DNA of 64,000 nt from a virus (lineage: Duplodnaviria; Caudoviricetes), in IMG/VR virus record IMGVR_UViG_3300037466_003648, positions 1 through 64,000 of that record; one strand, given 5' to 3'. The position numbers and the translations under genes are program-made. Positions within the stretch are counted from its first letter, which is position 1; each line of letters begins with the position of its first letter. Below the pieces are notes generated by a model that searched no databases, had not been told where the DNA came from, and saw only the letters and a list, made by a program, of their open reading frames with translations. Positions 20,983-38,946 of this stretch are shown in pieces.

Positions 20983-20999
20983 CCGAAAGGAGCCACACC

Positions 21000-21638
21000 A
21001 TGACCATCGGATCGTGGGAACCCAACGAAGAGCAGTTCCAGCTGGACCTGCGCAACATCATGGTCCGAGCCACGGACAACCCCGCACCCGATGCCAAGGA
21101 CGGCACCGCAATCGCCTACATGACACGTACGCGTGGTGACAAGGAAGTCGGCTTCACGATGTACTTCGAGGGTACGCCCACCCCCGACGAGATCAAGGAG
21201 ACCGCTCATCGTCTGATGAAGAGCGGCGCGTGGGGTGTCGACTACCATGCCATCAAGGTGCTGGTCCAGGCATTGAAGTTCAGTGCCAAGCAGTATGCCG
21301 AGTGGGACCGCAAGAAGTGGTTGCAGATGTGGGTCGACGACGGCTTCCAGGGCTACCACGTCGAGCCCATCAAGCTCGTCCCCACCGCCCAGGTGCAAGG
21401 GCAGTCGGAGAAGCCACCGTCCGAGGATGCGAAGTGCTACGCCTGTCGTCTCACCGGTCCGCTGTGTCCCGCGTGTGGCTTGCCCATCTTGCAGCACACC
21501 AGCCCCTACGAGAACTTCGCGACCTGTGCGGACACCATCAACTACCGCCTCAAGCGCGCGGCGGCGTACTGGGAAGAGAAGCGCGTCAACGACCTGGTGG
21601 AGATCTTCGAGAAGGCAGAGGAGAAGAAGGATGTCTGA
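21000..21638 (+). CDS. hypothetical protein with CxxC motifs
   Basis: GCCGAAAGGAGCC RBS; CYAC and CPAC. Confidence 0.75.
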   Translation: MTIGSWEPNEEQFQLDLRNIMVRATDNPAPDAKDGTAIAYMTRTRGDKEVGFTMYFEGTPTPDEIKETAHRLMKSGAWGVDYHAIKVLVQALKFSAKQYAEWDRKKWLQMWVDDGFQGYHVEPIKLVPTAQVQGQSEKPPSEDAKCYACRLTGPLCPACGLPILQHTSPYENFATCADTINYRLKRAAAYWEEKRVNDLVEIFEKAEEKKDV

Positions 21639-21873
21639 GGGCACGCCCTACACCCCGCGCAAGAGCGATCCCAAGCCCTGCAGCTACTGCGGCAAGGCAT
21701 TCCACCCGACGCTCGCCGCGGGGTGGGGCACCAACCTCGGTCCTGGCAAGCTGGACGACAGCCATTGCCCCGACCCCGAGTGCCGCGACAAGTCGCACGC
21801 GGCGTGGGATGCAGCGCTCAAGGAGTCCCGCACGGCGCACATGCGATCCCTCTTCCCGGAGTTCAAAGGCTGA
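21631..21873 (+). CDS. small Cys-rich protein
   Basis: SD GGAG; CSYC...CPDPEC. Confidence 0.65.
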   Translation: MSEGTPYTPRKSDPKPCSYCGKAFHPTLAAGWGTNLGPGKLDDSHCPDPECRDKSHAAWDAALKESRTAHMRSLFPEFKG

Positions 21874-22217
21874 TGGAGTATACCTACAGCGAACACGAGC
21901 ATGCCGACGAAGTGGAAGCCGTAGAGCAGTGTAGCACTTGTGGTTGTGGCGTTTACAGCTGCATCCATTGTGGTACACTCTACTGCCCCGCGCAGAGCGA
22001 GCGGTGCCCCGATCGGTGGAAGGCCAAAGCCAAGCGCTACGAGTCGGTGGTCTTCCACTACTCGCAGCCTGACGGTGTGCTACACCGCGAGGACTTCACA
22101 CCGGAAGAGCAAGTCGAGGTGGAAACCTTGGAGCGGGAGCTGGGCGAAGCCGTCTGTAAGCTCGTTCAGCAATTCGCGTCGTGGGACGACATCGAGGCAG
22201 CACGCAATGTACGGTAA
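21873..22217 (+). CDS. Cys-rich hypothetical protein
   Basis: TGATG overlap; CSTC, CIHC. Confidence 0.6.
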   Translation: MEYTYSEHEHADEVEAVEQCSTCGCGVYSCIHCGTLYCPAQSERCPDRWKAKAKRYESVVFHYSQPDGVLHREDFTPEEQVEVETLERELGEAVCKLVQQFASWDDIEAARNVR

Positions 22218-22354
22218 AGCTCTGGTCCCCATCTACAACGCGCTTGGACCCTTCTGGTACTTCGCGATGGTGGTTGTCCTGTTGGGTGGGGTTGCTTACC
22301 TCATACACAGGTATGACCGCTAAGTCTCATACCAGCCGAAAGGAGCCCATCCTC

Positions 22355-22594
22355 ATGAGCACAAAAGACATCGATGTCAGCACAACTTCGCAGCGTGCCG
22401 TACACATGAACCAAGTCGGCGATACCCTTGTGGTAAAAGAGACGTTGTATAACTGGCGAGGTCCCGATGTGACACAAACCGTCAATGTCACACCCCAGGA
22501 GTTGGCCTACATCGTGCTCTGCGCCTCCGGCCAGTTCGTCGAGGCGTTTGACGCCGAGATGGAACGGTTGATCAAGAACCACGGGAAGCGTTAG
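22355..22594 (+). CDS. hypothetical protein
   Basis: GCCGAAAGGAGCC RBS. Confidence 0.65.
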   Translation: MSTKDIDVSTTSQRAVHMNQVGDTLVVKETLYNWRGPDVTQTVNVTPQELAYIVLCASGQFVEAFDAEMERLIKNHGKR

Positions 22595-22927
22595 ATGTCG
22601 CCGCGCTACTACCAGTTCGAGGACGAAGACGAGACCCGCAGGAACGAAGAGAAGCAAGCACTTGCCGAACAGCGCTTCGCGGCAGCAGTCGATGCCTGCA
22701 AGCTCATGGCGCTTCAGAACGGCGAGGGCTCGACCCTACACATCGGGGTCGAGCAAGAGCGCTACTACGCGCGCGAAGGCACGCCGCCCACGCACATGGT
22801 GGCGATGTGCAACATGATCAGCGTCCTGCGTGATCCCAATGATCACGAGATGCGGTACCCCACCTGCAAGCTGTGCAACAGCAAGCACCGCAAAGCTCTG
22901 GAAGAGCGAGGAGATTCGTCGTGGTAG
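22595..22927 (+). CDS. hypothetical protein
   Basis: ATG directly after the upstream stop. Confidence 0.65.
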   Translation: MSPRYYQFEDEDETRRNEEKQALAEQRFAAAVDACKLMALQNGEGSTLHIGVEQERYYAREGTPPTHMVAMCNMISVLRDPNDHEMRYPTCKLCNSKHRKALEERGDSSW

Positions 22928-23379
22928 CCATTTCTTTCGTCGCCTACTGGATCGGCTTCATGGCCATCATCGCTGTCACGTTGATGGCGATCGTCGTGGG
23001 TGTGGGCTTCGTCACCTCCTTCCTCTCGAAGGCAGCCCTTGATGCCAGCGAGCGCGCCAACAACGTGGTGATCTTCGTGCACTTCCTGGCCTGGCGTGCC
23101 TGGCACCGCAAGGACTACCTGGAGCTGGAGAACGTCAACAACTTCATCGCCAAGGCGCGCAAGTTCGATGTTGTCGTCGCCAACCTCCAGAGCGCCTTGG
23201 AGTCCCTGATCGACGTCAACAACCAACCGCCCGGCTCGCTGCCCTACACCTGGGAGCAAGCCGAAGGCTGGGCGCGTCAGGCGCTGGCAGAGACCCGTGA
23301 CTTCTCCAAGTTCGCGCGTGCCCCGCGTCCCCGTCCGGCCAAGCTGTTGAAGGGTGCTCCCAAGAGCACGGAGGTGTAA
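22921..23379 (+). CDS. membrane-anchored hypothetical protein
   Basis: SD GAGGAG, GTG start, N-terminal TM. Confidence 0.6.
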   Translation: MVAISFVAYWIGFMAIIAVTLMAIVVGVGFVTSFLSKAALDASERANNVVIFVHFLAWRAWHRKDYLELENVNNFIAKARKFDVVVANLQSALESLIDVNNQPPGSLPYTWEQAEGWARQALAETRDFSKFARAPRPRPAKLLKGAPKSTEV

Positions 23380-23381
23380 CC

Positions 23382-23966
23382 ATGCGCGGCTTCCATTACA
23401 CCAGCTACCCGCACATCATCGCGGAGAACCGCAACCCCGGTCGTGAAGACGAGTCCCTCGTCATCCGGTACGACCCGGACGTTCACAACCGGCATCTACC
23501 CCACAGCGGAATGCGCGCCGACCCGATGAAGTTGGAGTCGCCTGCAGAGATCCGTTGGTTCATCAAGTCCCTGCAGGAGCTGCGCACGTATCTCCAGAGC
23601 GCCTCGCCGCGCAAGAAGAAGTTCGAGTTCAGTCGGGAGTGGATCAGTCCAGCCGGTCGCTACCCGAGCAAGGTTTACATCGGCTCCTCGCGCCACGGCT
23701 ACGCTGACGTTGCAGATCCGAACCGCATCTTCCTCGATTGGCACTGGGACCACATGTTGATCGACCAAGGGTGTCTGGACGTCATTCTCGATCAGCTCCT
23801 GCCGACGATCATCGTGCGGATGGAAGCCTGGGAGCGAGCAGAAGCCCAGCGTGTCTCCGAGGCTGCGGAGCAGTTGAAGAACGCACCGCCTGTCGAGACG
23901 GACCCTGAAGAAGACGTCCTGACCATCACCAAGAAACCCACCCGCCGCCGCAAGGTGGCTAGCTAG
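23382..23966 (+). CDS. hypothetical protein
   Basis: SD GGAGG. Confidence 0.75.
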   Translation: MRGFHYTSYPHIIAENRNPGREDESLVIRYDPDVHNRHLPHSGMRADPMKLESPAEIRWFIKSLQELRTYLQSASPRKKKFEFSREWISPAGRYPSKVYIGSSRHGYADVADPNRIFLDWHWDHMLIDQGCLDVILDQLLPTIIVRMEAWERAEAQRVSEAAEQLKNAPPVETDPEEDVLTITKKPTRRRKVAS

Positions 23967-23976
23967 GAGAGCCCAC

Positions 23977-24369
23977 ATGGCTGCCACAACCCCCGTGTAC
24001 AAAGTCGGCGACAAAGCCAAAGTCGTCAACGGTCTCTCGTACCACAACCAGGTCGGTGTCGTTCTCGACGTGACGGTTGGAGGCATTCTGCTAAAGCTTG
24101 CAGACAACTCGCTCTACTTCCCGTTCTCGGACGTGGAGCCGGTTGCTGCGACACAGCGAGTTGTGATCGTGCGTACTGATTGCCCCAGGACCAGCATTGA
24201 CTGGCCCGAAGGCAACTACAAGCCGTACGTCGGCATGATCCTGCTGAGCAAAACCAAGTCGAAGATCATCAAGGTCTACGAGGTCAAGGACATCCACTTC
24301 GATCCCGATTGGACGCCGGTCTTGCACCTGACCGAGCGCAGCAATTCCCCTGTGGAGGTGACCCTGTGA
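23977..24369 (+). CDS. KOW/SH3-like beta-barrel protein
   Basis: YKVGDKAKVVNG...GVVLDV. Confidence 0.6.
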   Translation: MAATTPVYKVGDKAKVVNGLSYHNQVGVVLDVTVGGILLKLADNSLYFPFSDVEPVAATQRVVIVRTDCPRTSIDWPEGNYKPYVGMILLSKTKSKIIKVYEVKDIHFDPDWTPVLHLTERSNSPVEVTL

Positions 24370-24593
24370 GCGCCGACATCCTCATCAACTACGATGACCA
24401 GTTCATCGCTCTCTACAACAACGTGCGGGGTAAGAACGACCCCGGCAGTCAGATGATCCTGGCTGCACTGCTGCAGGCGGATGCCAACCACCGCCTGGCG
24501 CAAGCGGTCAACGACCTGGTCACCAAGATCGCCGGGACGATTCCGGTCGAGATCGTGAACGCGCTCCGCATGGAGGTTCCCGATGGCAAGTGA
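24366..24593 (+). CDS. hypothetical protein
   Basis: SD GGAGG; GTGA overlap. Confidence 0.6.
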   Translation: MSADILINYDDQFIALYNNVRGKNDPGSQMILAALLQADANHRLAQAVNDLVTKIAGTIPVEIVNALRMEVPDGK

Positions 24594-24849
24594 AGGTGAT
24601 GTGTTCGCTTCGGGGATCTTGATCACCGTCCTCGCCGTGATGGTGGTAGGCGGCATCTTCCTCTTCGGGAATAGCCTAGGCGCTGGCCCCAATGCTGCCA
24701 TTCCCGGAGAGCTGCGTTGGTTGCAGACCTCTCAAGGTCACGCCTTTCTGGTAGAGAACGCCCACCACCAGCAGAAGATCGTGGTCGACTTCACCAACCA
24801 GCATGTCATCGTGGATGTGCCCGCCAGCACACCCGTCAGCCGACCTTGA
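24583..24849 (+). CDS. single-TM protein
   Basis: SD GGAGG; N-terminal hydrophobic helix. Confidence 0.65.
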   Translation: MASEGDVFASGILITVLAVMVVGGIFLFGNSLGAGPNAAIPGELRWLQTSQGHAFLVENAHHQQKIVVDFTNQHVIVDVPASTPVSRP

Positions 24850-24861
24850 AGGAGTACTGCC

Positions 24862-25221
24862 GTGTCCGACTTGACCCCCGAACAGGTAGCCCAACGCGAG
24901 CTGCGCCAAGACCGTCGGCTTGACGCGCTGAAGGTTGCAGGTTACATCGACCAGGACGACACCGATCCGGTCAACACACGGCGGTACATCATCGTCTACC
25001 ACGCCAGCATCATCGTGACGTGCTTCGGCGCGATCGATGCCGATACGCTCGAAGAGGTGGGCAAGGTCATCGAGCAGATCGACATCCAGCAAGGCAGCAT
25101 CAAGAAGGTGATCGACCTGGACACCAACCAGCCGGTCAAGTTCGTGATCAAGCGCAATGTCTGGGTTGAGTTCCCCGACGAAAAGTCCGATTCCTTGTCG
25201 GACACGGGGGTAGGCCAGTGA
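24862..25221 (+). CDS. hypothetical protein
   Basis: SD AAGGAG, GTG start. Confidence 0.7.
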   Translation: MSDLTPEQVAQRELRQDRRLDALKVAGYIDQDDTDPVNTRRYIIVYHASIIVTCFGAIDADTLEEVGKVIEQIDIQQGSIKKVIDLDTNQPVKFVIKRNVWVEFPDEKSDSLSDTGVGQ

Positions 25222-25445
25222 GCATCCCAGCCCATAAGGTAGGACGCCAATCCGATCCGTGCCGGGACTGCAGCAAGCCCATCGGCAATCAGGGACAGTG
25301 GTACCCCCACCCCTTCCACGGCCACAAGCCCTACGGCCGTTGTCCGTCCTGCGTGCAGGCGGTTTGGGAGAAGATGCTGGCCCAGGTGCCGCCAGCACCC
25401 CCGGAATCCTCACGGAACCAGCTGCAGGAAGGAGGCGAGGCGTGA
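25218..25445 (+). CDS. small Cys/His protein
   Basis: GTGA overlap; CRDC...CPSC. Confidence 0.55.
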   Translation: MSIPAHKVGRQSDPCRDCSKPIGNQGQWYPHPFHGHKPYGRCPSCVQAVWEKMLAQVPPAPPESSRNQLQEGGEA

Positions 25446-25831
25446 CCTCGACGGAAATCAATGAAGGTATAGAGAAGCTGGCGGATGGCCTCGACATGGG
25501 CGAGCCGGTAGCCATCAAGGGCTTGGAGATGACCGGCAAGGTCATCCCATACATTGGCTGGTACTGGCGCGAGGTGAACTTCGACAGTCCCATCACGCTG
25601 GGTCACTGTGGCCGCTTCGCCGGCTTCATGGAAAACAACAAGTGGGGGTACGACGAGCGGACGCTAACAGCCGAACAAAGCGCTGAGGTGCGCCGGCAGG
25701 CCGAGAACCTCGTGCGCCTGGCTGGTCTGGGCAATCCTATCGAGACGGAGTTACAGACCTTCTGCGATACCATCCAGGCGTCCTGGTCGGCATCCCAGCG
25801 GAAGCCGGAAGGAGAGAACGATGCCACGTAA
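25442..25831 (+). CDS. hypothetical protein
   Basis: SD AAGGAGG; GTGA overlap. Confidence 0.65.
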   Translation: MTSTEINEGIEKLADGLDMGEPVAIKGLEMTGKVIPYIGWYWREVNFDSPITLGHCGRFAGFMENNKWGYDERTLTAEQSAEVRRQAENLVRLAGLGNPIETELQTFCDTIQASWSASQRKPEGENDAT

Positions 25832-26030
25832 GCAGGCACAGAAGATGATCTGCGTCGGGTGCCACAAGCCCCTCCTGTGCGACCCGGACGACAATCCGAT
25901 CTGCTGGGACTGCGCTTCGACCGTGCTGGAAACCACGGACGCGGCGATGCCCCTGGACGTGATGCGCGAGGCCATCCGGCTTGGCGAGGCGAAGCGGGCG
26001 CAAGGCAGCGAGGTCCAGCCCAATGAGTGA
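25821..26030 (+). CDS. small zinc-binding protein
   Basis: SD AAGGAG; CVGC...CWDC. Confidence 0.6.
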   Translation: MPRKQAQKMICVGCHKPLLCDPDDNPICWDCASTVLETTDAAMPLDVMREAIRLGEAKRAQGSEVQPNE

Positions 26031-26376
26031 GCGTTTGCACGAGATCGCAAACCGGCTGAGCGCGGCAACTCCAGCCCCGTGGGAGGTGCGAGACATGCAC
26101 AGCACCTTCCATAGCGCCGTCGTGTTCCACGGTCGCCACGAGAAGAACCAGACCATCATCCAATGGCTCAATGGCTACAACCGGCCTGCCGACCTGGCCC
26201 TTGTTGTCAACGCGCCTGCCGACCTGGCGGATCTCGTCCGGGTAGCCAAGGCCGCCAAGGATGTTTGCTCCCAGGTGGCGGAGTTCGGCCAGGTCGTGGA
26301 CAGCGAGACGATGGATGCTCTGTTCAACGCGCTGGCCGCGCTGGACACCCCGGTAGCCAACAAGGACCGGCCCTGA
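26023..26376 (+). CDS. Ead/Ea22-like phage protein
   Basis: RLSAATPAPWEV...ADLALVVNAPADL pattern. Confidence 0.6.
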   Translation: MSERLHEIANRLSAATPAPWEVRDMHSTFHSAVVFHGRHEKNQTIIQWLNGYNRPADLALVVNAPADLADLVRVAKAAKDVCSQVAEFGQVVDSETMDALFNALAALDTPVANKDRP

Positions 26377-26591
26377 TGCCCCAAGCCTGCTACAAGTGCT
26401 ACCGATGCGGCAAGGACCTAGAGCCCGGCTATACGGGCTATTGCGGGATGCGCTGCTACAAGAAAGGACCTGTATTCATGGCCCCGTGGAACGCTGCGGT
26501 GATCGGCAAGGTGATGGACGACGAGCGACGGGCGGCCAATCCGTTCTGGGACCAGCACGGCCCGGTATCCACGCAGGACATGACCAAGTAA
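26376..26591 (+). CDS. small Cys-rich protein
   Basis: TGATG overlap; CYRC...CGMRC. Confidence 0.55.
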   Translation: MPQACYKCYRCGKDLEPGYTGYCGMRCYKKGPVFMAPWNAAVIGKVMDDERRAANPFWDQHGPVSTQDMTK

Positions 26592-26614
26592 CCACAGCCG
26601 AAAGGAGCCCTTTC

Positions 26615-27280
26615 ATGACCCATCTCCAGGAAGTCACCCACCCGCTCTGGTTCCATCACGGTAACACGACAGGTACCGAGTTGTTGACCATCCGGTACCC
26701 CGCTCTCGACAAGTGCCCAGCCTTCGCCCGGTCGTTCCAAGCAGTGACGTTCACGGGTGAAGAGCACATTCTGCGGCTGTTGACCGCCGTGGATGCGTTG
26801 TTCTCCTACGCGACGAAGTACCCGAACGCGCAGGCTACGCACGAAGGTACCTGGGGATCGGTCACCAGCAAGAACGATGGCCTCTTCTACCTCCAGGACA
26901 ACCAGAAGAATGTGTTCCCGGTCAACCTGTTCGGGCTGTACCACATCGTGGACAGCTTCTGTACGGGTGAACACTCAACAATGCAGCGGCTTACCAGGGT
27001 GGTCAACGCCCGTCAGGAGCGCGCGCTGTACCCACCTACCCAGCAGTTAATCGACCAACTCGTGAAGGTGACCGAGGATGTGGGTGCTCGTCTGAACGGC
27101 GTGAGGTTGCGCGCCGACTTCGCTGATACCACGGCGCGTTTGATCGAACGCGCGGGTCAGCTCGACTCGCTCAATCGTGGGTTGCTGGACCTGATCGAGG
27201 CTTACGGGCTCAAGCCTTCACCCAAGTACAACAACTACGATGCCTGGCGCATCTCCAAGATCATCGCGGAGGCCAAATGA
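26615..27280 (+). CDS. hypothetical protein
   Basis: GCCGAAAGGAGCC RBS, ATG 26615. Confidence 0.7.
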   Translation: MTHLQEVTHPLWFHHGNTTGTELLTIRYPALDKCPAFARSFQAVTFTGEEHILRLLTAVDALFSYATKYPNAQATHEGTWGSVTSKNDGLFYLQDNQKNVFPVNLFGLYHIVDSFCTGEHSTMQRLTRVVNARQERALYPPTQQLIDQLVKVTEDVGARLNGVRLRADFADTTARLIERAGQLDSLNRGLLDLIEAYGLKPSPKYNNYDAWRISKIIAEAK

Positions 27281-27738
27281 GTGTTCACCTGATCGCGGAG
27301 TTCAAAGGGAAGTACCACTTCCTGAGCAACTTCTACATCGCGCCGGTTACCCTCTGGCACCCGCTGTTCGGCGAACAGCGTTACCCCACGACCGAGCACG
27401 CCTACCAGGCAGCGAAGTGCGAGAACCGCGAAGGCCACGATCTGATCCAAGTGGCGGGCACACCGGGCAATGCCAAGCGCATGGGTGCCATTGCCAAGCT
27501 GCGACCGGACTGGGAGCAGATCAAGGACAACGTCATGACGGCGGTCGTCGGGGCCAAGTTCGCCCAGCACGATGCGCTGCACGCGCAGCTACTCGCAACC
27601 GGTGATGCCTACCTGATGGAAGGCAACGAGCACGGCGATAAGATCTGGGGCTGCGTGGAGCACGTCAGCGGCGAATGGATAGGCGAGAACCGACTGGGTC
27701 GGATTCTCATGAAGCTGCGGAAGGAGCTGCGCGGATGA
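27277..27738 (+). CDS. NADAR (YbiA-like) family ADP-ribose/N-glycosidase
   Basis: FLSNFY, YPTTEHAYQAAK, KFAQH..L..QLLATG, DKIWG, GENRLGRILM. Confidence 0.9.
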   Translation: MSVHLIAEFKGKYHFLSNFYIAPVTLWHPLFGEQRYPTTEHAYQAAKCENREGHDLIQVAGTPGNAKRMGAIAKLRPDWEQIKDNVMTAVVGAKFAQHDALHAQLLATGDAYLMEGNEHGDKIWGCVEHVSGEWIGENRLGRILMKLRKELRG

Positions 27739-28064
27739 ACGATCAAGTGGTCCTCCTGGGGTGTTACCATCCCTCTTGTCGGGGTGTCACCCCGGTCGCC
27801 ATCCACAACACGGACCACGCCGAATGGACCTGCGTGGCGTGCGGTTGGTACAACTACCACGACACCGCCTTCAATCGGTTCTACGCCCTCGACCCCAACG
27901 AGGACGCGAAGAAGGACTTCCCTAACGCCACCTGGTCCAGCGAAGCCGTCGTGGCGCAGGTCGAGTCCCACCCGGCCAAGACCCGAAGGGTTGTCCATGG
28001 GGTAGGACTGGTCTTGCTGATCGCAATGTTCCTGCTACTATGGAGGAATGGTTGGGTTAAGTAG
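27735..28064 (+). CDS. Cys-rich protein with C-terminal TM
   Basis: SD AAGGAG; ATGA overlap. Confidence 0.6.
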   Translation: MNDQVVLLGCYHPSCRGVTPVAIHNTDHAEWTCVACGWYNYHDTAFNRFYALDPNEDAKKDFPNATWSSEAVVAQVESHPAKTRRVVHGVGLVLLIAMFLLLWRNGWVK

Positions 28065-28083
28065 GAACGACGCAGGAGGTTTC

Positions 28084-28410
28084 ATGTCACTACCGGCACC
28101 TCGCTTGGAAAAGCGGGACGAGGTTCAGGTCATCGCGGGTGACCAAATCGGCCTCACGGGCAAGGTCATCAACATTCTCCAAGGTGCTGGTAGCAGGATC
28201 GTCGTACAGTTCGGTCCTGCCGTGTTTGGTACTTTCACCAGCAACGAACTCAAACGCGTGTCGAAAGGAGCCGTCGTTGTCCAACCTCAAGTTGTTGAAA
28301 CTGCACAAGTCGAAGAATGCTCTGTTGGAGGATCTTCGGCGCTTGGTGCAGGCGGGAATCACGCCGAAGTCCGGCCCCTGGAACTCCGAAACCTTAGGCT
28401 GGACCCGTGA
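28084..28410 (+). CDS. KOW-motif protein
   Basis: RDEVQVIAGDQIGLTGKVINI; tail overlaps the next gene. Confidence 0.55.
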   Translation: MSLPAPRLEKRDEVQVIAGDQIGLTGKVINILQGAGSRIVVQFGPAVFGTFTSNELKRVSKGAVVVQPQVVETAQVEECSVGGSSALGAGGNHAEVRPLELRNLRLDP

Positions 28411-29386
28411 CACCTGGAATCGCGCCCAAGAACTGGACATCCAGCTCCTCTCGCGCAATCTCTACTCCGAGCGGTTGGGTCCGCTGCGCGAGGTTGTGAA
28501 GCAGCTGCATCTCGAAGAAGGGGTGCCTCACGCGGGCTTCGCCAAGGTCAGCTTGGGCGGCGATGCCCAGGACATGATCAAAGACCTCGCGATCTTCTAC
28601 CTCGTGTACCGGTATTTCCCGGAGCGCGACAAGGCGAACCAAGGTCGAGGTGGGTGGAGTCTGTCTACCATCCGCTGTGCCAAGAACAGCGGCATCTCGC
28701 TTGCGAGCGTGACCAAGTACAAGTACTGGTTCGGCAGCGTCGACGAAGCCGAGCAGCTGGCACTGCAGCTCATCCGCCACGGCTACAACGGTAACCAACC
28801 CGTGACGGGCATCATGTCGCAGCTGAACTTCGTTCCGCCGCACGTCAACAAGCGCAGCTTCATCAACTTCATCCAGCAACACCCACGTTGGAACCTCAAA
28901 CCCAATCAACCTCTACCCATCCCCGTGCTCGCCGCCCCCGAGGAGGAGCCCACCGTGGACCCGACCCCAACCAGCCCCTTCGCTGGCTTGACCAAGCTGT
29001 TCGACCAACCCAAGGAGACCTCACCCGTGGACTACTCGACCGCGAGCAGCCCTGCGCCCGCACCAACTCCCCAACCCACCGAGATGCCTGCTCAGTTGAC
29101 GCCGAAGTACCTGCCTGGCACGATCGTGTTGGTCAGCTACAATCCGGGACAGTGGACGCTTGCTCAGGTGGATGAAGTGGTCGTGCGCTGGACGCGCACC
29201 GGGACTTCCGAGTTCGCCTACAAGGTGACCGACTCGAACGGTACGCAGGAGACCATGACCAAGCGCTCCAGCATCATCAGCCCTGACGAGTTTGTCGACC
29301 AGCTCGCGAGTCTTGCCCAGTTGGCAGAGAAGCGCGAACTGCCGCTCAACGAGTGGCGCGACGAGCACCCTCTTACCAGTACCTAG
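28277..29386 (+). CDS. hypothetical multidomain protein with Pro/Thr-rich linker
   Basis: SD GAAAGGAG, TTG start 28277. Confidence 0.7.
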   Translation: MSNLKLLKLHKSKNALLEDLRRLVQAGITPKSGPWNSETLGWTRDTWNRAQELDIQLLSRNLYSERLGPLREVVKQLHLEEGVPHAGFAKVSLGGDAQDMIKDLAIFYLVYRYFPERDKANQGRGGWSLSTIRCAKNSGISLASVTKYKYWFGSVDEAEQLALQLIRHGYNGNQPVTGIMSQLNFVPPHVNKRSFINFIQQHPRWNLKPNQPLPIPVLAAPEEEPTVDPTPTSPFAGLTKLFDQPKETSPVDYSTASSPAPAPTPQPTEMPAQLTPKYLPGTIVLVSYNPGQWTLAQVDEVVVRWTRTGTSEFAYKVTDSNGTQETMTKRSSIISPDEFVDQLASLAQLAEKRELPLNEWRDEHPLTST

Positions 29387-29416
29387 GCGGGTCTCCGCCT
29401 CGAAAGGACGTGACCC

Positions 29417-29803
29417 TTGACCAGCAACGTGACCAACATCATCGCCTTCAGCCACCGTCTCCACATCGAGGCGGAGAGCCGCTTGGCGAAGTTGTACCCC
29501 GGCGCCGTCTTCCACGAGATGCTGTACCACTGCGAGGACCGCAACGCGCTGGAGACCGACATCGACCGCATCATGGGCGAACTCAAGGCCAAGGGCGCGC
29601 TCGATGGCCGGGTCGTCATCACACCGCCCAGCCTTTCCGCCGCGGCGTCGCTGTTGATCATCGCGATCTTCCGCGAGACCGGCCACTTCCCCGACATCGT
29701 CAACCTCATGCAGACCGGCGCGGTGTACGTGCCTGGCTACAAGACGCCAGTGTTCCGGGGTCAGGCGTTCGGCGATCGTAGGCGCCGCGCACGCGCATCC
29801 TAG
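29417..29803 (+). CDS. Csx15-like protein (CARF-like, type III CRISPR-associated family), stand-alone
   Basis: IIAFSHRL resembles Csx15 ILNFSHPL; VVITPPSLSAAASLLIIAIFRETGHFPDIVNL resembles ILVNPPSL...LLAELHGRMGYFPxILRL; size (128 aa) is also typical. Confidence 0.62.
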   Translation: MTSNVTNIIAFSHRLHIEAESRLAKLYPGAVFHEMLYHCEDRNALETDIDRIMGELKAKGALDGRVVITPPSLSAAASLLIIAIFRETGHFPDIVNLMQTGAVYVPGYKTPVFRGQAFGDRRRRARAS

Positions 29804-29818
29804 CGAGGATCGGCCACG

Positions 29819-30193
29819 ATGACCGACAACGACCTAGACGGCCTAATCCTACTGGCCGAAGCTGGTGTACTGTTTCTCCGTGAGGAAGGTCCGTACACCC
29901 TCTACCTGGATGGCAACGAACCATGGATGTATCTCTGGCTCGACAAGCCCAGCTTCGTCCTCAATTGGTATCGTTGGAAGCTCAGACCGGGCGGTAAGGA
30001 CAAGGGCTATCCCGGCCTGAGCCAAAAGAAACTCCGCAAGTTTGCCAAGGTGCTGCGTGCCGTTGCCAAGGACGCCCGCATGCACAGCCCGCTAAGCAAG
30101 TCGATTGCTGCGGCCGTTGAGCGCCACCAGCGCACCCAGATGGAACGTCTGTACGCTACGACCAAGGACGGTTCCAAGCAGGACGCGGTTTAA
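29819..30193 (+). CDS. hypothetical protein
   Basis: ORF, SD GAGG. Confidence 0.6.
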   Translation: MTDNDLDGLILLAEAGVLFLREEGPYTLYLDGNEPWMYLWLDKPSFVLNWYRWKLRPGGKDKGYPGLSQKKLRKFAKVLRAVAKDARMHSPLSKSIAAAVERHQRTQMERLYATTKDGSKQDAV

Positions 30194-30206
30194 CAAGGAG
30201 TTTTAG

Positions 30207-30503
30207 ATGCCTGGCTGTCCCAAGTTCGTTCAACTCAAGCACCTCCAACTCATCGACGTCCTGCGGGGTGCCGATGAGTTCCACCGCCTGCGCAACAAGG
30301 TCTCGATCGACGAGTACCTGCGCAAGCACTACCCTACGGTCCCGTGGAAGCTGATCAACCTCAAGATCGAGCGCGCCCACGATGAGGGCTACCTGGAATG
30401 CGGCGTCAGCGAACGCACCGGCTGGCTCACCTCCAAGGGGAAGGCCAAACTCCAGGAACTCGAAGAAGCCCAACTGCTGAAAGGAGCCCCCGATGCCGTG
30501 TAA
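30207..30503 (+). CDS. hypothetical protein, possible winged helix
   Basis: SD AAGGAG; KIERAHDEGYLECGVSERTGWLTSKG. Confidence 0.65.
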   Translation: MPGCPKFVQLKHLQLIDVLRGADEFHRLRNKVSIDEYLRKHYPTVPWKLINLKIERAHDEGYLECGVSERTGWLTSKGKAKLQELEEAQLLKGAPDAV

Positions 30504-30972
30504 CATCGTTCTCGCGATGTACGATGCCGATCATCCCGTTGCCAAGGATGCCCAGAAGTGCACGGGCGTCACGGACACCTGCCCCGATCAAGAGTGCCTG
30601 GCGTGCAGCGTGCGGGAGTGTCCCAGCTGCGAACCGCTGCACTTCCACCACGATGGCTGTCCTGCCTGTATTCGCCAGCACGAGATGGCGATGAAGAAGC
30701 TGGACGCCGAGGTCAACCAAGCCGTGTTCCCCGGTGCGGTGAGCCTGGGTAAGTACACGTCGCCGTCCACCGACATCGAGGCGGCGATGCTCGTCCTGTG
30801 CAAGGTTCGTGGCAACCTGGACTTCCTGATCGGCAACACGCCGGAGGGGCAGTACTATTGCTACATCGCCCTCACCAGCAACTACGGCAAGAAGGGCATC
30901 GGCGACACCATCTCCGAAGCCATCTGCCGCTGCGCGCTGCTGGTGATGGAGTCTGGCTTGGTGAAGCTGTGA
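30493..30972 (+). CDS. Cys-rich N-terminus plus phage ABA-sandwich-like domain
   Basis: SD GAAAGGAG; STDIEAAMLVL...TISEAICRCALLV. Confidence 0.6.
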   Translation: MPCNIVLAMYDADHPVAKDAQKCTGVTDTCPDQECLACSVRECPSCEPLHFHHDGCPACIRQHEMAMKKLDAEVNQAVFPGAVSLGKYTSPSTDIEAAMLVLCKVRGNLDFLIGNTPEGQYYCYIALTSNYGKKGIGDTISEAICRCALLVMESGLVKL

Positions 30973-31358
30973 TCCGCGACGACATCAAGATCGAGCTGGA
31001 GGACATTGGCGAAGGTCAGTGCGGTGATTACGATCCCGAAGACCCTGACGATACGCCTCTTCTCCGCTTCTCCTGCTACGTCAAGGGCAAGCTGCGTCAG
31101 CAGATCTTGAAGGATCGTTCGTTCGATCTGGAAGACCTTACCGAGTCGAGCACGATCACCTGGGTGGCGGTCAACAACGCCTCGTTCTGCACGCAGCTGC
31201 CTGCTACCATGGACGCAGCCGATCAAGCCCGAGCCGAAGAGTTGCTGATGAACAAGCTCTACGAGCCCATCACCTCCGGTACCGACTTGAAGCGCACTCT
31301 CGAAGAGGCCAGTTGGATCGATCCAACGTGGCTGTCACCCAGAACAAACCCACTCTAA
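30969..31358 (+). CDS. hypothetical protein
   Basis: GTGA overlap; LEDIGEGQCGDYDPEDPDDTPLLRF. Confidence 0.7.
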   Translation: MIRDDIKIELEDIGEGQCGDYDPEDPDDTPLLRFSCYVKGKLRQQILKDRSFDLEDLTESSTITWVAVNNASFCTQLPATMDAADQARAEELLMNKLYEPITSGTDLKRTLEEASWIDPTWLSPRTNPL

Positions 31359-31374
31359 GCAAGGAGTCTGCACG

Positions 31375-31677
31375 ATGAAGAGCGATCTGCTTCCCCTCAC
31401 CAGCTTGGAGTTGGGAGACATCTTCGAGTTCGAGACCGAACCGACCACGCTCGACGACCACAACGAACTGCACTTCGCCTGGCATCGGCTCGACTACATC
31501 GACCTCAAGCACTCCACGATGGAGTACACCACCCTGGCGCAAGCCGGTGATGGGGTGACCCTGCGCAAGCGCAACACACTCAACAGCACGTTCTTGGCGG
31601 AGTACCAGGTCGTCCGGCGTAGTCTGGACGACAACCCGCTACAGATCGCGCTGGAAAGCCGAAAGGAGCCTTCATGA
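31375..31677 (+). CDS. hypothetical protein
   Basis: SD AAGGAG. Confidence 0.65.
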   Translation: MKSDLLPLTSLELGDIFEFETEPTTLDDHNELHFAWHRLDYIDLKHSTMEYTTLAQAGDGVTLRKRNTLNSTFLAEYQVVRRSLDDNPLQIALESRKEPS

Positions 31678-32327
31678 ACCCTTTGGAAGAGATCCAGCTG
31701 ACCGCCCAAACGATCTACCAGCGTGAGCGGGCTCTGGAGAGCGAGTACTATACTGCCCTGCTGCAGCTCACGCTGGCGGGGCTGAAGCGCTTCAAGTTCA
31801 AGCTGCCCGTGGCCGAAGAGTTGCCTCACCAGGGCGATTGGTCGAGCAAGAACAAGGACACCATTACCCTGGTCGAAGACGAGCAGGGCGTCATACAAGC
31901 CACCTGGTTCGTCTACGACCACAGTGGCGCGACCGAAGGCAGGCGCTACAAAGGTCCGCTGTTCGACATGCCACCCGAGGTGCAGGCGCGCACGTTCAAG
32001 TTGCTCTACTACAAGCACATGGCGCTCATGAGCGAGATACTGGGTCGCATCCGCCATGAGGTTAGCAGCGCCTCGCGCGCCGTCGAGACCGCTCGGGAAG
32101 CTCGGCAACGCGACAAGAACCTGGAGGAGCCAAAGCCGTGCACATCAACCTCATCGTCAACGCCTACTACACCTGCAACCTCGGCCGACAAACCGACATC
32201 CAGGTCGAGAACGACAACGGCCAAGTCCGCCCGCTCTGGAGCGGCTACACCCAAGAGCGCAACGCCGTCGCCGCGGCGCAAGGCTGGGCAGACTTCTTCG
32301 GCGTCGAAGTTAGGCGCCAGTCGCTGA
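31674..32327 (+). CDS. hypothetical protein (low-complexity tail overlaps the next gene)
   Basis: GCCGAAAGGAGCC RBS; ATGA overlap. Confidence 0.65.
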   Translation: MNPLEEIQLTAQTIYQRERALESEYYTALLQLTLAGLKRFKFKLPVAEELPHQGDWSSKNKDTITLVEDEQGVIQATWFVYDHSGATEGRRYKGPLFDMPPEVQARTFKLLYYKHMALMSEILGRIRHEVSSASRAVETAREARQRDKNLEEPKPCTSTSSSTPTTPATSADKPTSRSRTTTAKSARSGAATPKSATPSPRRKAGQTSSASKLGASR

Positions 32328-32368
32328 ACGCACCCTACCCGCCCGTAGCCGAAGGAGCGTCGTACTGA
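32138..32368 (+). CDS. hypothetical protein
   Basis: SD GGAGGAG, GTG start. Confidence 0.6.
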   Translation: MHINLIVNAYYTCNLGRQTDIQVENDNGQVRPLWSGYTQERNAVAAAQGWADFFGVEVRRQSLNAPYPPVAEGASY

Positions 32369-32583
32369 TGCCGCTGCCATGTAAGCGCTGCGGCGGTGAG
32401 ACGTTCAACCACTACCACCAAGTGCTCTGCCGGAAGTGCACGCAGTGTCAGAGCTGTGAGTGCTGTCCGTGCGAGCAGATTGGTTGCCCCGATTGTCCAG
32501 CGGGTGGTCGCCGTGAAGGCGAAGACTCGCTGGACTACTTTGCACGTCGTATGTTCGGCGAGGAGACACAAGATGGCAAGTAA
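32368..32583 (+). CDS. small Cys-rich protein
   Basis: SD AAGGAG; ten Cys residues. Confidence 0.6.
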   Translation: MPLPCKRCGGETFNHYHQVLCRKCTQCQSCECCPCEQIGCPDCPAGGRREGEDSLDYFARRMFGEETQDGK

Positions 32584-32797
32584 ACGGTGTCTCCGGCGTA
32601 AGTCCTGCGAGAGCAAGAAGCGCTTCGAGACGATGGAGATCGCCATCCAAATGAGCGGGCAGCGCATGCGGCAAACACAAGGTAAGTCCGGCACCCTGCA
32701 CGCTTACAAGTGTCAGTTCTGCAGTGGCTACCACATGGGCCACCCACCGGGTTCGGCTAGCACCAAACCCAAACCCAAGATTTGGAGAACACGATGA
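32573..32797 (+). CDS. small zinc-finger protein (AYKCQFCSGYHMGH)
   Basis: SD GAGGAG; C...CxxC...H pattern common in phages. Confidence 0.65.
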   Translation: MASKRCLRRKSCESKKRFETMEIAIQMSGQRMRQTQGKSGTLHAYKCQFCSGYHMGHPPGSASTKPKPKIWRTR

Positions 32798-33006
32798 ACC
32801 TGTGGATTCGCGTCTCACGCCTCTACAAGGAGCAGAATGACCTGGTCATGTTCGGACCTGGCGGCATCACCGCGTTGGAAAAGACCGACGACGGCGAGTT
32901 GACCATCCTGCGTGGTAAGGACAGTCCTGCAGATGGGTGGGAAGTCGAGGATTCGATCAACACCCTGGAGGCCCATATCACCATCGCGATGAGGGGGAAG
33001 TCATGA
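32794..33006 (+). CDS. hypothetical protein
   Basis: SD GGAG; ATGA overlap. Confidence 0.6.
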   Translation: MNLWIRVSRLYKEQNDLVMFGPGGITALEKTDDGELTILRGKDSPADGWEVEDSINTLEAHITIAMRGKS

Positions 33007-33479
33007 GCACCGGGTTGCCCTGCCTCTATTGTCACGCCGACCCCTGCCGCGGCGCTCCCAACTGGTGTTGCCAGGCGCTCAAGGACGTCGTCGAAGCGAA
33101 CGAAGAGACCAACCGTCTCAAGAACACCGGCATCCCGACGATCCTGTTCTGCCCGGAGTGCAAGTACCAGCACGTCGACCGCGGCGAGTGGGCCACCAAG
33201 CCCCACCGTACACACCTGTGTGAGATCTGCGGTCATCTCTGGCGTCCCTTCGAGGTCGCCACCTACGGCACCACAACCCAAGACATCTTCGTGCCCGAGG
33301 TACTCGCCTCCGTCAAGAACACACCACCCTACAAGACTCTTGGCAAGTTCATGGCCGAGGGCTACTGCCCGCACAAGCTGTTCGGCGAGGCTTGGTGGAA
33401 GACCCGTACGGCCGAATACGTCAACACCCACGGCTGCGACATCTGCCGTGTGGCTTCACGGAGGGAGCGGCCCTTCTAG
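33003..33479 (+). CDS. Cys/His-rich hypothetical protein
   Basis: IPTILFCPEC..QHVD...PHRTHLC..CGHLW. Confidence 0.7.
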   Translation: MSTGLPCLYCHADPCRGAPNWCCQALKDVVEANEETNRLKNTGIPTILFCPECKYQHVDRGEWATKPHRTHLCEICGHLWRPFEVATYGTTTQDIFVPEVLASVKNTPPYKTLGKFMAEGYCPHKLFGEAWWKTRTAEYVNTHGCDICRVASRRERPF

Positions 33480-33487
33480 GAGATCCC

Positions 33488-33700
33488 ATGAGCACCGTTC
33501 TCAGTCCCACCCACCAGTGCGCCTACGTGGTCATGCAAGAGCCCGTGACCTCGTGCAACGCACCCTGCTTCTCGTGGAGCTTCACCGGCCCCAACGGTCC
33601 GTGGGTCTCCCTCTGCCTGGATCACATCCCGTTCTGGCCGTTCAAGGGATCGGGCGAGTTCGCGCCGCTGATTCGCCTCCCGGAGGACACCAAGTCATGA
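33488..33700 (+). CDS. hypothetical protein
   Basis: SD AGGAG. Confidence 0.6.
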   Translation: MSTVLSPTHQCAYVVMQEPVTSCNAPCFSWSFTGPNGPWVSLCLDHIPFWPFKGSGEFAPLIRLPEDTKS

Positions 33701-34071
33701 CCGGCACGCACACCCATCTCTACTGCCTGAACTGCAAGGCAGTCACACAACACGACGACGCGGGCGACTTCCAGTGGTCCTGTGTGGGCTGTCAGCGTCT
33801 CATCCACGCACCGGACGGCGCCCATCTGCAGGAGGTCTTCAGCGAGGTCAAGATCGCATTGATGATCGCTTGCGAGTTGCCGATCGCACGTCGCTACGAG
33901 CGCTGCCGTCTTCAGCAGCTGAATGACCCTGACGGGATCATCGCAGTCTGGAACGACATCATGCAGCCTGTCGTGTATGTCAACCGCCTGCGAGCAGAGT
34001 TGCTGCCCGATCGTGTCCTGCACACCCTCTTCACCAACGCGTTGATCGACATGGTCAACACCCGTCCGTGA
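33697..34071 (+). CDS. zinc-ribbon hypothetical protein
   Basis: SD GGAGG; CLNC...CVGC. Confidence 0.6.
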   Translation: MTGTHTHLYCLNCKAVTQHDDAGDFQWSCVGCQRLIHAPDGAHLQEVFSEVKIALMIACELPIARRYERCRLQQLNDPDGIIAVWNDIMQPVVYVNRLRAELLPDRVLHTLFTNALIDMVNTRP

Positions 34072-34269
34072 GCGCGGAGCAGGCACGCCGCGTCGGCGTT
34101 GGTTTGGTGGGCATCGTTGACACGCTCTTGGCGCTTGACGATGCCCGTTTTCTTGCCGCTCTCCAGGAACTGCCGGAGACCGCCCTAAACGGGCTGTTGA
34201 CTGGTTGGAGGGGCGGTGCATTCACCCGCCGTTACACCGATCTGGTTCTCGAAAGGAGCCCTTCCGCCC

Positions 34270-35421
34270 ATGAGCACCCCCACCATCGTTGACAACAAGG
34301 TCGAGGTCCGCGTCTGCTTCGACACGACGGGATCTATGTCCCCGTGCATCATGCAAGTGCGGCGCGTGGCCCGCGAGATGCTGACCCGCCTTGCCAAGGA
34401 CGTCCCCGGCATCCGCATGGGCATCACCGCGCACGGCGACTACTGCGACGATCCGGCGAGCGCCAGCGGTTACTACAGCCGTGGCAGCTACGTCACCAAG
34501 CACTCCGCCATGACCAGCGACATCAACTCGATCGTCAGCTTCATCGACAACGTGGGCAACACCGGCGGCGGCGACTCCGACGAGTGCTACGAGCTGGTGC
34601 TGAAGGAAGTCCAGGACCCCGCGATGGGCTGGACGCCTGGCTACAAGCACATCCTCGTCATGATCGGCGACGCCGAGCCGCACGAGCCGGGTTACCGCTA
34701 CGGCGGCAAGACCTACGACATCAACTGGCGCCACGAGGCCAAGAAGCTGGCCGACCAGGGCGTCAAGATCTACTCCGTCCAGGCGATGAGCTACAGCCGC
34801 TCGCGCAACTTCTGGTCGGAGATCGCGAAGATCGGTGGCGGCCACCACATCACGCTGGACCAGTTCGCCTACATCACGGACATGTTGCTCGCGATCTGCT
34901 ACCAGCAGCAAGGCCCCGAGGCGCTCTCCAAGTTCGAGACCGAGCTGCGTACGGCGGGTCGCTTGGGTCGCAACATGGCCACCGCGATCGGCACGCTCGC
35001 CGGGCGGTCGGTCGAGGCCATCAAGGAAGCCACCACCAAGACCTTCGGCGATCCCGGTAAGCTGCGTGCTTGCGACCCCAGCCGCTTCCAGGCGTTGGAG
35101 ATCGACGCGGATGTCCGCATCGACCAGTTCGTCGAGGGCAACGGCATCCCGTTCATCAAGGGCCGCGGCTTCTACGAGTTCATGAAGCGCGAGGAGATCC
35201 AGTCCTACAAGGAAGTCATCCTGATGGACAAGGCGTCCGGCGACCTCTTCGAGGGCGACGTGGCGCGCGAGATGCTGGGCCTCCCCAAGGACAAGACCGT
35301 CAAGCTCAGCCCGAAGGAAGTGGACCTGGGCAAGTACACGGCCTACATCCAGTCGACCAGCTACAACCGCAAGCTGATTGGCGGGACAAAGTTCCTGTAC
35401 GAGGTTGACCGCACGCGCTAA
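34270..35421 (+). CDS. von Willebrand factor A (vWA) domain protein
   Basis: SD GAAAGGAG; MIDAS-type FDTTGSM, GDYCD, GGGDSDECY, MIGDAEPH. Confidence 0.85.
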   Translation: MSTPTIVDNKVEVRVCFDTTGSMSPCIMQVRRVAREMLTRLAKDVPGIRMGITAHGDYCDDPASASGYYSRGSYVTKHSAMTSDINSIVSFIDNVGNTGGGDSDECYELVLKEVQDPAMGWTPGYKHILVMIGDAEPHEPGYRYGGKTYDINWRHEAKKLADQGVKIYSVQAMSYSRSRNFWSEIAKIGGGHHITLDQFAYITDMLLAICYQQQGPEALSKFETELRTAGRLGRNMATAIGTLAGRSVEAIKEATTKTFGDPGKLRACDPSRFQALEIDADVRIDQFVEGNGIPFIKGRGFYEFMKREEIQSYKEVILMDKASGDLFEGDVAREMLGLPKDKTVKLSPKEVDLGKYTAYIQSTSYNRKLIGGTKFLYEVDRTR

Positions 35422-35508
35422 GCGTCACCAACGTGTCGGCGGAGAGGCTTCTCCGTCGACACGTCCACACATCTTGTCGATCCCATCGACACGCCGAAAG
35501 GAGCCACC

Positions 35509-35802
35509 ATGCGATTAGGAGATACGACGGGTTCCAAGCCTGTCTACGTACACGATTGCAAACGTTGCGTCTACTTGGGTACCACACTGGTCCCACCCAA
35601 CAAAAGCGGCAAGGAAGGCTACACACCTGCCGACTGGTATGGCTGCAACAACCACGACAACGCGATCATCATCACGCGCCACAGCAGCGAGCCCAGCGAC
35701 AACCGGACGATCGATGCCCGTGACATCGGCCCCGCCTACGACTCGTTCAGCATGCTGCGGGCAGGTTTCGCGGCGCTGTACGCCGAACTGCGGGCATCCT
35801 AG
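35509..35802 (+). CDS. hypothetical protein
   Basis: GCCGAAAGGAGCC RBS. Confidence 0.65.
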   Translation: MRLGDTTGSKPVYVHDCKRCVYLGTTLVPPNKSGKEGYTPADWYGCNNHDNAIIITRHSSEPSDNRTIDARDIGPAYDSFSMLRAGFAALYAELRAS

Positions 35803-35914
35803 ATGCCCGGCCGCAGTCTGGAAGACATGGAAGAGCGCGCTCATGATGGGTACGCCGATCCCGAGGATGTTCTGACCCTGGTGGGCTGGATTCGCCAGCT
35901 CACGAAGCCGAAGG

Positions 35915-36403
35915 ATGATGCCCATGCAAGCGACGATTAACAAGCGCACGCCCTTGGTTCGGGTTCACATGGTACGCGAAACCATGGTAGAGTACCCCAT
36001 CGGCGAGCTGATGTCCGGTCCTCGCTACATCGGTCACGCTGCAAAGGTCATCCTCGACACCTACGACCGAGAAGCCTTCTTGGTTGCACACCTCAACGCC
36101 AAGCACAAGCTCATCTCGATGGAGGTGGTCGCGGTCGGCACCATCAATGCCACCCTGGTCCATCCTCGCGAGGTGTTCAAGGGAGCCGTGCTCGCCAATG
36201 CGGTCTCGGTCTGCCTGGTGCACAATCACCCCTCCGGTGATCCCACACCCAGCGCTGACGACATCGCACTCACAAAACAGCTCCTGGAAGCCGGGGAGAT
36301 CCTGGGTATCCGGGTCCTCGATCACCTCGTGTTGGGGTACGACCGTTCGGTCAGCCTCCGCGAAAACACCTCGCTGTGGCGAGAGCAATCCTTCCACCGC
36401 TAG
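35915..36403 (+). CDS. radC: RadC/JAB-domain protein
   Basis: REAF...GTINATLVHPREVF...HNHPSGDPTPS.DD...VLDH. Confidence 0.9.
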   Translation: MMPMQATINKRTPLVRVHMVRETMVEYPIGELMSGPRYIGHAAKVILDTYDREAFLVAHLNAKHKLISMEVVAVGTINATLVHPREVFKGAVLANAVSVCLVHNHPSGDPTPSADDIALTKQLLEAGEILGIRVLDHLVLGYDRSVSLRENTSLWREQSFHR

Positions 36404-36413
36404 GAGGTAGCCC

Positions 36414-36854
36414 ATGCAACTCGAACGCGTGAACATGTGGGACAGGCACCAGTGGGCGGGCGTCTACGTTGCCACCACGACCAACAGCATGATCAAGGCC
36501 AATGGTCGGGCGGCCATGGGCAAGGGCAACGCACTCGAAGCTTCCCAGCGCTTCCCCAAACTCGCCACCGGGCTGGCCGAATTGCTCAAGCTGCGGGGCA
36601 ACCACGTCTTCTACTTCCCGGACTACAAGCTCTTCACCTTCCCCACGAAGCACAACAACCCGTGGGCCAATTCGGACCTCGCGCTCATCGAGCAGTCCGC
36701 TCAAGAGCTGCGTATGTTCCTGGATGCCTACTCCCAGGTCAAGACCGTCTACCTACCCCAGCCGGGGTGTGGCAACGGTCGCCTCGACTGGAAGGACGTC
36801 GAACCCGTCCTGGATCGCCACCTCGATGACCGCGTGATCGTGGTCTACCAGTAA
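36414..36854 (+). CDS. macrodomain (DarG/Appr-1-p-like ADP-ribose processing) protein
   Basis: TTNSMIKANGRAAMGKGNA, FPTK, YLPQPGCGNGRLDW. Confidence 0.8.
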   Translation: MQLERVNMWDRHQWAGVYVATTTNSMIKANGRAAMGKGNALEASQRFPKLATGLAELLKLRGNHVFYFPDYKLFTFPTKHNNPWANSDLALIEQSAQELRMFLDAYSQVKTVYLPQPGCGNGRLDWKDVEPVLDRHLDDRVIVVYQ

Positions 36855-36882
36855 CCCTCCCTCTGCTGAAAGGAGCCTCATC

Positions 36883-38937: not shown

Positions 38938-38946
38938 GAGAATGTC

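Follow-up and report, generated by a model that had tools for sequence, protein, structure and literature searches.

The gene at positions 29,417 to 29,803 of the 64,000-nucleotide stretch of phage DNA analysed here (the window) encodes a 128-amino-acid protein related to the CRISPR-associated protein Csx15. It was found that this is a real coding gene held under purifying selection, that its product has sequence homology to Csx15 and a matching predicted fold, that most of the residues of the Csx15 ligand site are kept, and that the phage is without cas genes. The protein is probably a divergent, stand-alone member of the Csx15 family that depletes cA4-type signals to blunt the type III CRISPR immunity of the host, a reading that we hold with somewhat more than even confidence.

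Csx15 acts on cA4 either as a sponge or as a ring nuclease (bioRxiv 10.64898/2026.01.21.700848; 10.64898/2026.10.26.761840). According to these 2026 preprints, cA4 is bound by Csx15 in head-to-tail filaments and is cleaved by some of the proteins, and type III immunity can be neutralised in vivo. PfCsx15 (PDB 9tet) is a cA4 sponge and CliCsx15 (PDB 9teu) is a slow cA4 ring nuclease, both being cA4-specific; CsCsx15 and HaCsx15 are broad ring nucleases that cut cA3 to cA6 as well as 3'3'3'-cAAG and 2'3'3'-cAAA. Csx15 domains also occur as cA4 sensors in Schlafen-nuclease fusions (Cash). With regard to viruses, a screen of 28,114 phage genomes for ring nucleases was carried out by Hoikkala and colleagues, and Chi et al. 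reported Csx15 in none of the screened phage genomes (bioRxiv 10.64898/2026.01.21.700848). Klimavicius et al. (October 2026) described one homologue from a Lokiarchaeota virus and more than 20 metagenomic viral Csx15 proteins, found that those in IMG/VR are mostly in prophage regions, and proposed the name AcrIII-3 for them with a putative role (bioRxiv 10.64898/2026.10.26.761840).

The Phage Genome and the Features of the Gene

The window is the start of the record IMGVR_UViG_3300037466_003648, a virus genome of 205,180 bp with direct terminal repeats (127 bp in the exact repeat) and a CheckV completeness of 100%. Because genes encoding the terminase large subunit, portal, head protease, tail sheath, and tail fibre are present, the phage is a jumbo myovirus, and the phage setting that had been proposed from the sequence was confirmed. 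The sequencing runs that contain the stretch are soil and rhizosphere metagenomes.

The features of the gene are given in Table 1. The open reading frame and its own GAAAGGA ribosome-binding site were found as originally predicted. The motifs FSHRL (residues 11 to 15), PPSL (residues 70 to 73), and GHFPDIVNL (residues 89 to 97) are also present as predicted, although the spacing that had been given from the leucine after PPSL to GHFP was off by two residues. A promoter and terminator scan yielded nothing exceeding shuffled sequences.

Table 1. Features of the Csx15-like gene; positions are those of the window.
Feature	Position	Strand	Description and basis
Phage Csx15 homologue gene	29417..29803	+	128 aa, TTG start, TAG stop; ORF, profile match, orthologues, model
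Shine-Dalgarno-like GAAAGGA	29402..29408	+	8 nt 5' of the TTG start; direct sequence reading
S12-H13 codons (putative 'head' motif, beta1-alpha1 loop)	29450..29455	+	Aligned to S9 and H11 of PfCsx15 (9tet)
G89-H90-F91-P92 codons (GHFP motif)	29681..29692	+	Aligned to GHFP of PfCsx15 (H82) and CliCsx15 (H90)
Y108 codon (aromatic after beta-hairpin)	29738..29740	+	Aligned to PfCsx15 F106; residue count our own
R121-R122-R123-R124-A125-R126 codons (putative 'tail' arginine cluster, C-terminal helix)	29777..29794	+	Alignment with P0018

Coding Capacity and Selection

An open frame of this size could have arisen by chance in GC-rich DNA or could be a decaying remnant, and it was noted that two longer shadow ORFs overlap the gene (29353-29781 on the plus strand and 29021-29686 on the minus strand) and that no RNA run was listed as containing the region. 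However, the GC contents at the three codon positions of the frame (0.60, 0.44, and 0.90) resemble those of the Pfam-supported neighbouring NADAR and RadC genes, whereas both shadow ORFs have an inverted or wrong codon-position pattern.

Furthermore, we found three orthologues in related phage contigs (Logan) with 60 to 74% identity to the phage protein, and two of these contigs have further genes in common with the source phage. In contigs L002 and L003, the aligned codon of the orthologue is ATG where the phage gene has its TTG start, which supports the position of this start. The dN/dS values (Nei-Gojobori) relative to the three orthologues were 0.18, 0.18, and 0.09, with synonymous sites close to saturation. 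The significant profile matches and the structural model with a pLDDT of 94.6, described below, also argue against a chance frame. The conservation and selection data rule out the chance or remnant reading, to which we give practically no credence.

Homology to Csx15

The NCBIfam profile CAS_Csx15 (NF040560) matched the phage protein with an E-value of 2.2e-7, residues 8 to 109 aligning with profile positions 2 to 107 of 125. The score was 31.1 bits (30.5 bits in a search of the whole genome), which falls short of the curated equivalog cut-off of 35 bits. By this measure, the protein ranks as a divergent homologue, below an equivalog of NCBI grade. The Csx15 model of PADLOC matched as well (E 2.9e-5). 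Profiles of the clade matched PDB entry 9tet, named 'CRISPR-associated Csx15' (E 3.5e-5 and 4.6e-9), and PDB entry 9teu, named 'csx15' (E 2.1e-5), and there was a faint profile match to CbCash, a Schlafen-Csx15 fusion. Searches of Pfam and PHROGs yielded no family for the protein, and the Pfam search gave no match to SAVED.

An exhaustive search of 1.84 billion cluster representatives with a profile of the four phage proteins gave 16 matches at E <= 0.001. Two of these, P0005 and P0012, were excluded as spurious because they are repeat proteins; the remaining matches, together with P0001 and P0003, make up the 16-sequence alignment used here. CAS_Csx15 was matched by 15 of the 16 aligned sequences, which comprise the phage clade and remote relatives, with a best E-value of 3.7e-36. 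The remote relatives, canonical Csx15 proteins included, are 21 to 30% identical to the phage protein. One of them, P0018, is encoded in a type III-B locus with Cmr2/Cas10, Cmr3, Cmr5, RAMPs, Cas6, Cas1, and Cas2, where its gene directly adjoins that of a Card1/Can2 effector.

A profile of the remote relatives scored the phage protein at 88.6 bits, compared to 5.1 bits for the best of 2000 shuffled sequences, a test that is partly circular because the remote relatives had been chosen using the phage profile. A word-based profile search added one further protein only. There was no match to the phage protein by tblastn among 50,697 phage records, and the clade alignment found no relative in scans of IMG/VR contigs or 185,579 species genomes, nor did a second scan of the species genomes using the nearest remote group.

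Taken together, these matches make it very probable that the phage protein is homologous to Csx15. The family call of the original prediction thus holds as homology, with HMM profile matches at E-values of 2.2e-7 and 2.9e-5 and with a structural similarity (TM 0.80) that is described next. The further claim of a 'captured Csx15' stands only in part: the protein is a Csx15 homologue, but one that lies below the cut-off as a divergent relative and not plainly a captured canonical Csx15.

Predicted Structure

AlphaFold2, run with the 16-row alignment, produced a model with a mean pLDDT of 94.6 and a pTM of 0.87. The model has a five-stranded sheet, a beta-hairpin (residues 97 to 106), and a C-terminal helix (residues 115 to 127), in the order E-H-E-H-E-H-E-E-E-H, and this layout agrees with what has been published for PfCsx15. 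The best three clusters in the ESM Atlas were of the Csx15 type (TM 0.79 to 0.82, 118 residues aligned, rmsd 2.0 to 2.1 Å), and the top match was a 'CRISPR-associated protein Csx15' with TM values of 0.80 and 0.82 over 118 residues at an rmsd of 2.0 Å. The predicted fold of the phage protein therefore matches the Csx15 fold, with a single Rossmannoid domain of about 125 amino acids, a beta-hairpin, and an Arg-rich C-terminal helix in common with PfCsx15, CliCsx15, HaCsx15, and CsCsx15.

Among 48,161 PDB representatives, the best fold match was 9r8s, the viral SAVED ring nuclease vSAVED (AcrIII-2), with a Z score of 8.4 and an rmsd of 3.3 Å over 109 residues. It was followed by the SAVED domains of Cap5, Cap14, Cap4, and TIR-SAVED and by several CARF proteins, which is in line with the relationship reported between Csx15 and SAVED. 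Like Csx15, vSAVED assembles head to tail and has a composite active site. However, vSAVED is a 238-residue pseudo-dimer of two lobes with 7% sequence identity to the phage protein, which corresponds to a single lobe (9r8s residues 114 to 235), so that the phage protein would have to dimerise.

Foldseek searches of the PDB gave only weak SAVED and CARF matches (E >= 0.01), with no Csx15 entry among the matches listed, and a search of BFVD structures gave nothing at E <= 0.001. The prediction of a complex of four protein copies with four AMP molecules had a score of 0.03 relative to a mark of 0.42 and is evidence neither way.

The Putative Ligand Site

In Csx15, cA4 is clamped by dimers that are stacked head to tail (bioRxiv 10.64898/2026.01.21.700848; 10.64898/2026.10.26.761840). 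The same preprints report that the head histidine (H8 in HaCsx15 and CsCsx15, H11 in PfCsx15, and H13 in CliCsx15) is required for catalysis or cA4 binding in HaCsx15, CliCsx15, and PfCsx15. The tail triad R-x3-R-x2-R (R118/R122/R125 in HaCsx15 and R116/R120/R123 in PfCsx15) contacts the cA4 phosphates; in HaCsx15, R125 is catalytic and R118 is required for cA4 binding and filament assembly. The central histidine (H82 in PfCsx15 and H90 in CliCsx15) is required for oligomerisation in CliCsx15, and F106 of PfCsx15, which was equated with Y113 of CliCsx15 and has the same role as F106 of HaCsx15, is one of the residues that flank or contact adenine.

We mapped these sites onto the phage protein by means of the alignment and not from coordinates. 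The head histidine corresponds to H13, which is invariant in all 16 aligned family members, and S12, the equivalent of PfCsx15 S9, is invariant in the phage clade. H90 is the central histidine of GHFP, but P0002 and P0003, two of the four phage orthologues, have glutamine instead, and the residue also varies across the remote relatives. Y108 is at the aromatic position (F106/Y113), which is proline in the orthologue P0004. In the tail, the last two arginines of the R-x3-R-x2-R triad of P0018 are aligned with R123 and R126, both of which are invariant in the phage clade, whereas the position of the first arginine is occupied by G119, a glycine that is likewise invariant in this clade. There are additional arginines at R121, R122, and R124, the first two of which are invariant in the phage clade.

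What the phage protein has in common with known Csx15 proteins is thus the serine and histidine that follow beta1 in the head, the GHFP sequence, an aromatic residue past the hairpin, and, as far as the alignment shows, all but the first of the tail arginines. It differs from them in the glycine and in the extra arginines, as well as in a PPS motif where most relatives have PGxS. Judged from the alignment, the ligand site appears to be largely kept, with one notable change, from the first tail arginine to glycine.

This change may bear on which signal would be bound. It is conceivable that the protein acts mainly as a nuclease or sponge against CBASS signals (cA3 and cAAG), or against another cyclic-oligonucleotide defence, and not against type III CRISPR, because the altered tail triad (G119 with the extra R121 and R122) could shift specificity, CsCsx15 and HaCsx15 have the broad activity on cA3 to cA6, 3'3'3'-cAAG, and 2'3'3'-cAAA noted above, and the CBASS SAVED domains of Cap5, Cap4, and Cap14 are among the top PDB folds. 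However, PfCsx15 and CliCsx15, the solved relatives that were matched by sequence, are both specific for cA4, Csx15 is found together with Cas10 much more often than with CBASS cyclases, and cA4 fits a symmetric dimer. We regard a mainly anti-CBASS role as unlikely, and depletion of cA4-type signals is the reading that we carry forward.

Genomic Neighbourhood

The Csx15-like gene is located in a long same-strand run of small genes, mostly without any family, in a variable block of early-type genes. The downstream neighbour is different in every relative, and so the gene stands alone in this variable block. Upstream by 1.7 kb there is a NADAR-domain gene (27277-27738; Pfam E 1.6e-29; phrog_1017), the product of which may counter DarT-type ADP-ribosylation, and in the relative L002 a NADAR gene is likewise found two genes upstream of the Csx15 orthologue. 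The relative L003 has an upstream gene of 348 codons in common with the window, the products being 61% identical.

Several other genes nearby were noted. Downstream, 30493-30969 encodes a 159-residue, Cys-rich protein with a C-terminal Phage ABA sandwich domain (Pfam E 3.7e-7), and the gene downstream of the Csx15 orthologue in L003 encodes a Cys motif resembling that of this protein. Further downstream, 35915-36400 encodes a RadC-like JAB domain protein (E 3.5e-39), and the product of 36414-36851, earlier called a DarG-like macrodomain, has no Pfam family at E <= 0.001.

As originally predicted, there are no cas genes nearby: no Pfam cas family was found among the neighbouring ORFs scanned (20.2 to 38.9 kb), and the whole 205-kb genome gave no match to the Cas10 palm. 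[quoted passage not shown] The whole phage genome contained one Csx15 match only, and there was no match to AcrIII-1 (PF08960), 2H phosphodiesterase (PF13563), or Tad2. A search of the genome for SAVED gave no match, a result of little weight because the same search was blank in every control genome.

The occurrence of a quarter of cellular Csx15 genes apart from type III CRISPR, together with cA4 sensing by the Schlafen-fused Csx15 domains of Cash and the position of the phage protein on a divergent branch under the equivalog cut-off, would also fit a small nucleotide-binding sensor or regulator of the phage's own programme, for example one that senses a nucleotide of the host or the phage and acts through a partner in trans, with no part in counter-defence. 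We consider this improbable, because the phage protein is not fused to an effector and its gene lacks a conserved neighbour, each relative having a different downstream gene, because neither Cas10 nor SAVED was matched in the phage genome, and because the residues that have been kept belong to the site of ligand clamping and catalysis. These same residues are in keeping with the preferred reading, depletion of cA4-type signals.

Hints to the Host and Remote Relatives

The portal gene of the phage (194255-195943 on the minus strand, in whole-genome coordinates) belongs to phrog_113 (E 1.1e-42), and the best cultured relatives of its product are those of Microcystis Ma-LMM01-type and Microcoleus phages, at 29% identity. 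The similarity points only weakly to a cyanobacterial or related host. The HIP1 palindrome GCGATCGC is present in 32 copies in the phage genome, a modest number, compared to about 7 expected from base composition; the first 10 kb together with the last 1.2 kb contain 20 of the 32 copies, and there is none near the Csx15-like gene.

When positions 20000 to 40000 of the window were compared with cultured phage records, there was only one substantial DNA match, covering 5% of the query: 925 bp at 37940-38865, within an ORF of 684 codons without a family (36883-38934), are 72% identical in nucleotides to a hypothetical gene of the phiCbK-like jumbo phages of Caulobacter (CcrRogue, CcrBL10, and BL64).

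The remote Csx15 relatives nearest to the phage clade are P0006, P0008, P0010, P0013, P0014, and P0016, on contigs L004:8001-8522, L015:3408-3851, L011-L013, and L017. Their genes are found in runs of small, unannotated ORFs on the same strand with no cas genes, and a TctA-like gene of 410 to 420 codons is located a few genes downstream of Csx15 in the contigs of both P0006 and P0016. This nearest group was absent from the 185,579 species genomes scanned, and it may be a second group of Csx15 proteins of mobile elements or viruses.

Discussion

The results are consistent with a model in which the phage protein, by analogy with the solved Csx15 proteins, would form a Rossmann-like dimer, with one cA4 molecule clamped between two dimers. 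The 'head' of one dimer (S12, H13, and Y108) would face the Arg-rich 'tail' helix of the next (R123 and R126 with the extra R121, R122, and R124), giving head-to-tail stacking. During infection, the second messenger made by Cas10 would be removed, either by slow cleavage in a composite active site formed by H13 and R126 or at least by stoichiometric sequestration, and the cA4-activated effectors of the host type III CRISPR system would remain off. CBASS signals may be affected too, since Csx15 enzymes also cut cA3 and cAAG.

The oligomerisation of the phage protein, its ligand, its mode of action, and its anti-defence role are steps that we infer, and they differ in strength. Binding of a cyclic oligoadenylate is likely. 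Within the anti-defence reading, cleavage and pure sponging appear to be roughly equally likely, because PfCsx15, the closest solved relative by sequence, is a sponge, and because H90 is not fixed in the phage clade. The anti-type III role is plausible: it is credible as a putative function and presupposes that the phage would meet a cA4-signalling system in its host.

Several observations stand against the depletion of cA4. The score of 31.1 bits is below 35, identity to canonical Csx15 is 21 to 30%, and the position of HaCsx15 R118, the first tail arginine, is G119. In addition, H90 is glutamine in half of the four orthologues, and Y108 is proline in one. Both Csx15 preprints argue from slow turnover that Csx15 would be a poor viral weapon (bioRxiv 10.64898/2026.01.21.700848; 10.64898/2026.10.26.761840), and Csx15 domains can be sensors, as in Cash.

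A more far-reaching possibility, which we consider rather doubtful, is that the phage protein is a re-tooled Csx15, the remodelled arginine tail of which (G119, R121, R122, and R124) would allow fast or broad action on several cyclic oligonucleotides, so that one protein of 128 residues would shield a jumbo phage from type III CRISPR and CBASS alike. If this were true, it would be the first Csx15 shown to be a true viral anti-defence weapon, contrary to the published view of its kinetics.

Three known or proposed kinds of viral ring nuclease can be compared with the phage protein, as a putative cA4-depleting protein. AcrIII-1 (the DUF1874/STIV B116-like ring nuclease) has the same proposed job, destruction of cA4 by a virus, but its fold and family are unrelated, the phage protein having no Pfam match and the phage genome no PF08960 match. 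AcrIII-2 (vSAVED) is the best PDB fold match, but the phage protein is without the Pfam SAVED match. The phage protein also resembles AcrIII-3: both are viral Csx15 homologues from metagenomes and putative cOA-degrading anti-CRISPRs. Because this name had already been proposed for viral Csx15 proteins (bioRxiv 10.64898/2026.10.26.761840), the suggestion of a new anti-CRISPR type in the original prediction does not hold, and the phage protein instead adds a fairly divergent new member to a kind that had been proposed before. Unlike the cases in that preprint, it is encoded in a complete 205-kb myovirus genome with direct terminal repeats, and at least three related phage contigs have conserved its gene.

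The characterisation of Csx15 dates only from 2026, and the copy in a complete jumbo phage is a cleaner test object than the rare, mostly prophage-linked viral copies: purifying selection maintains it within a small lineage of phages, and its putative ligand site is mostly intact, one residue of the triad being changed. Assay of the phage protein would show whether viral Csx15 is a true anti-CRISPR (AcrIII-3) and whether it is a sponge or a cleaver, and also whether the altered tail changes the speed or the specificity of its action.
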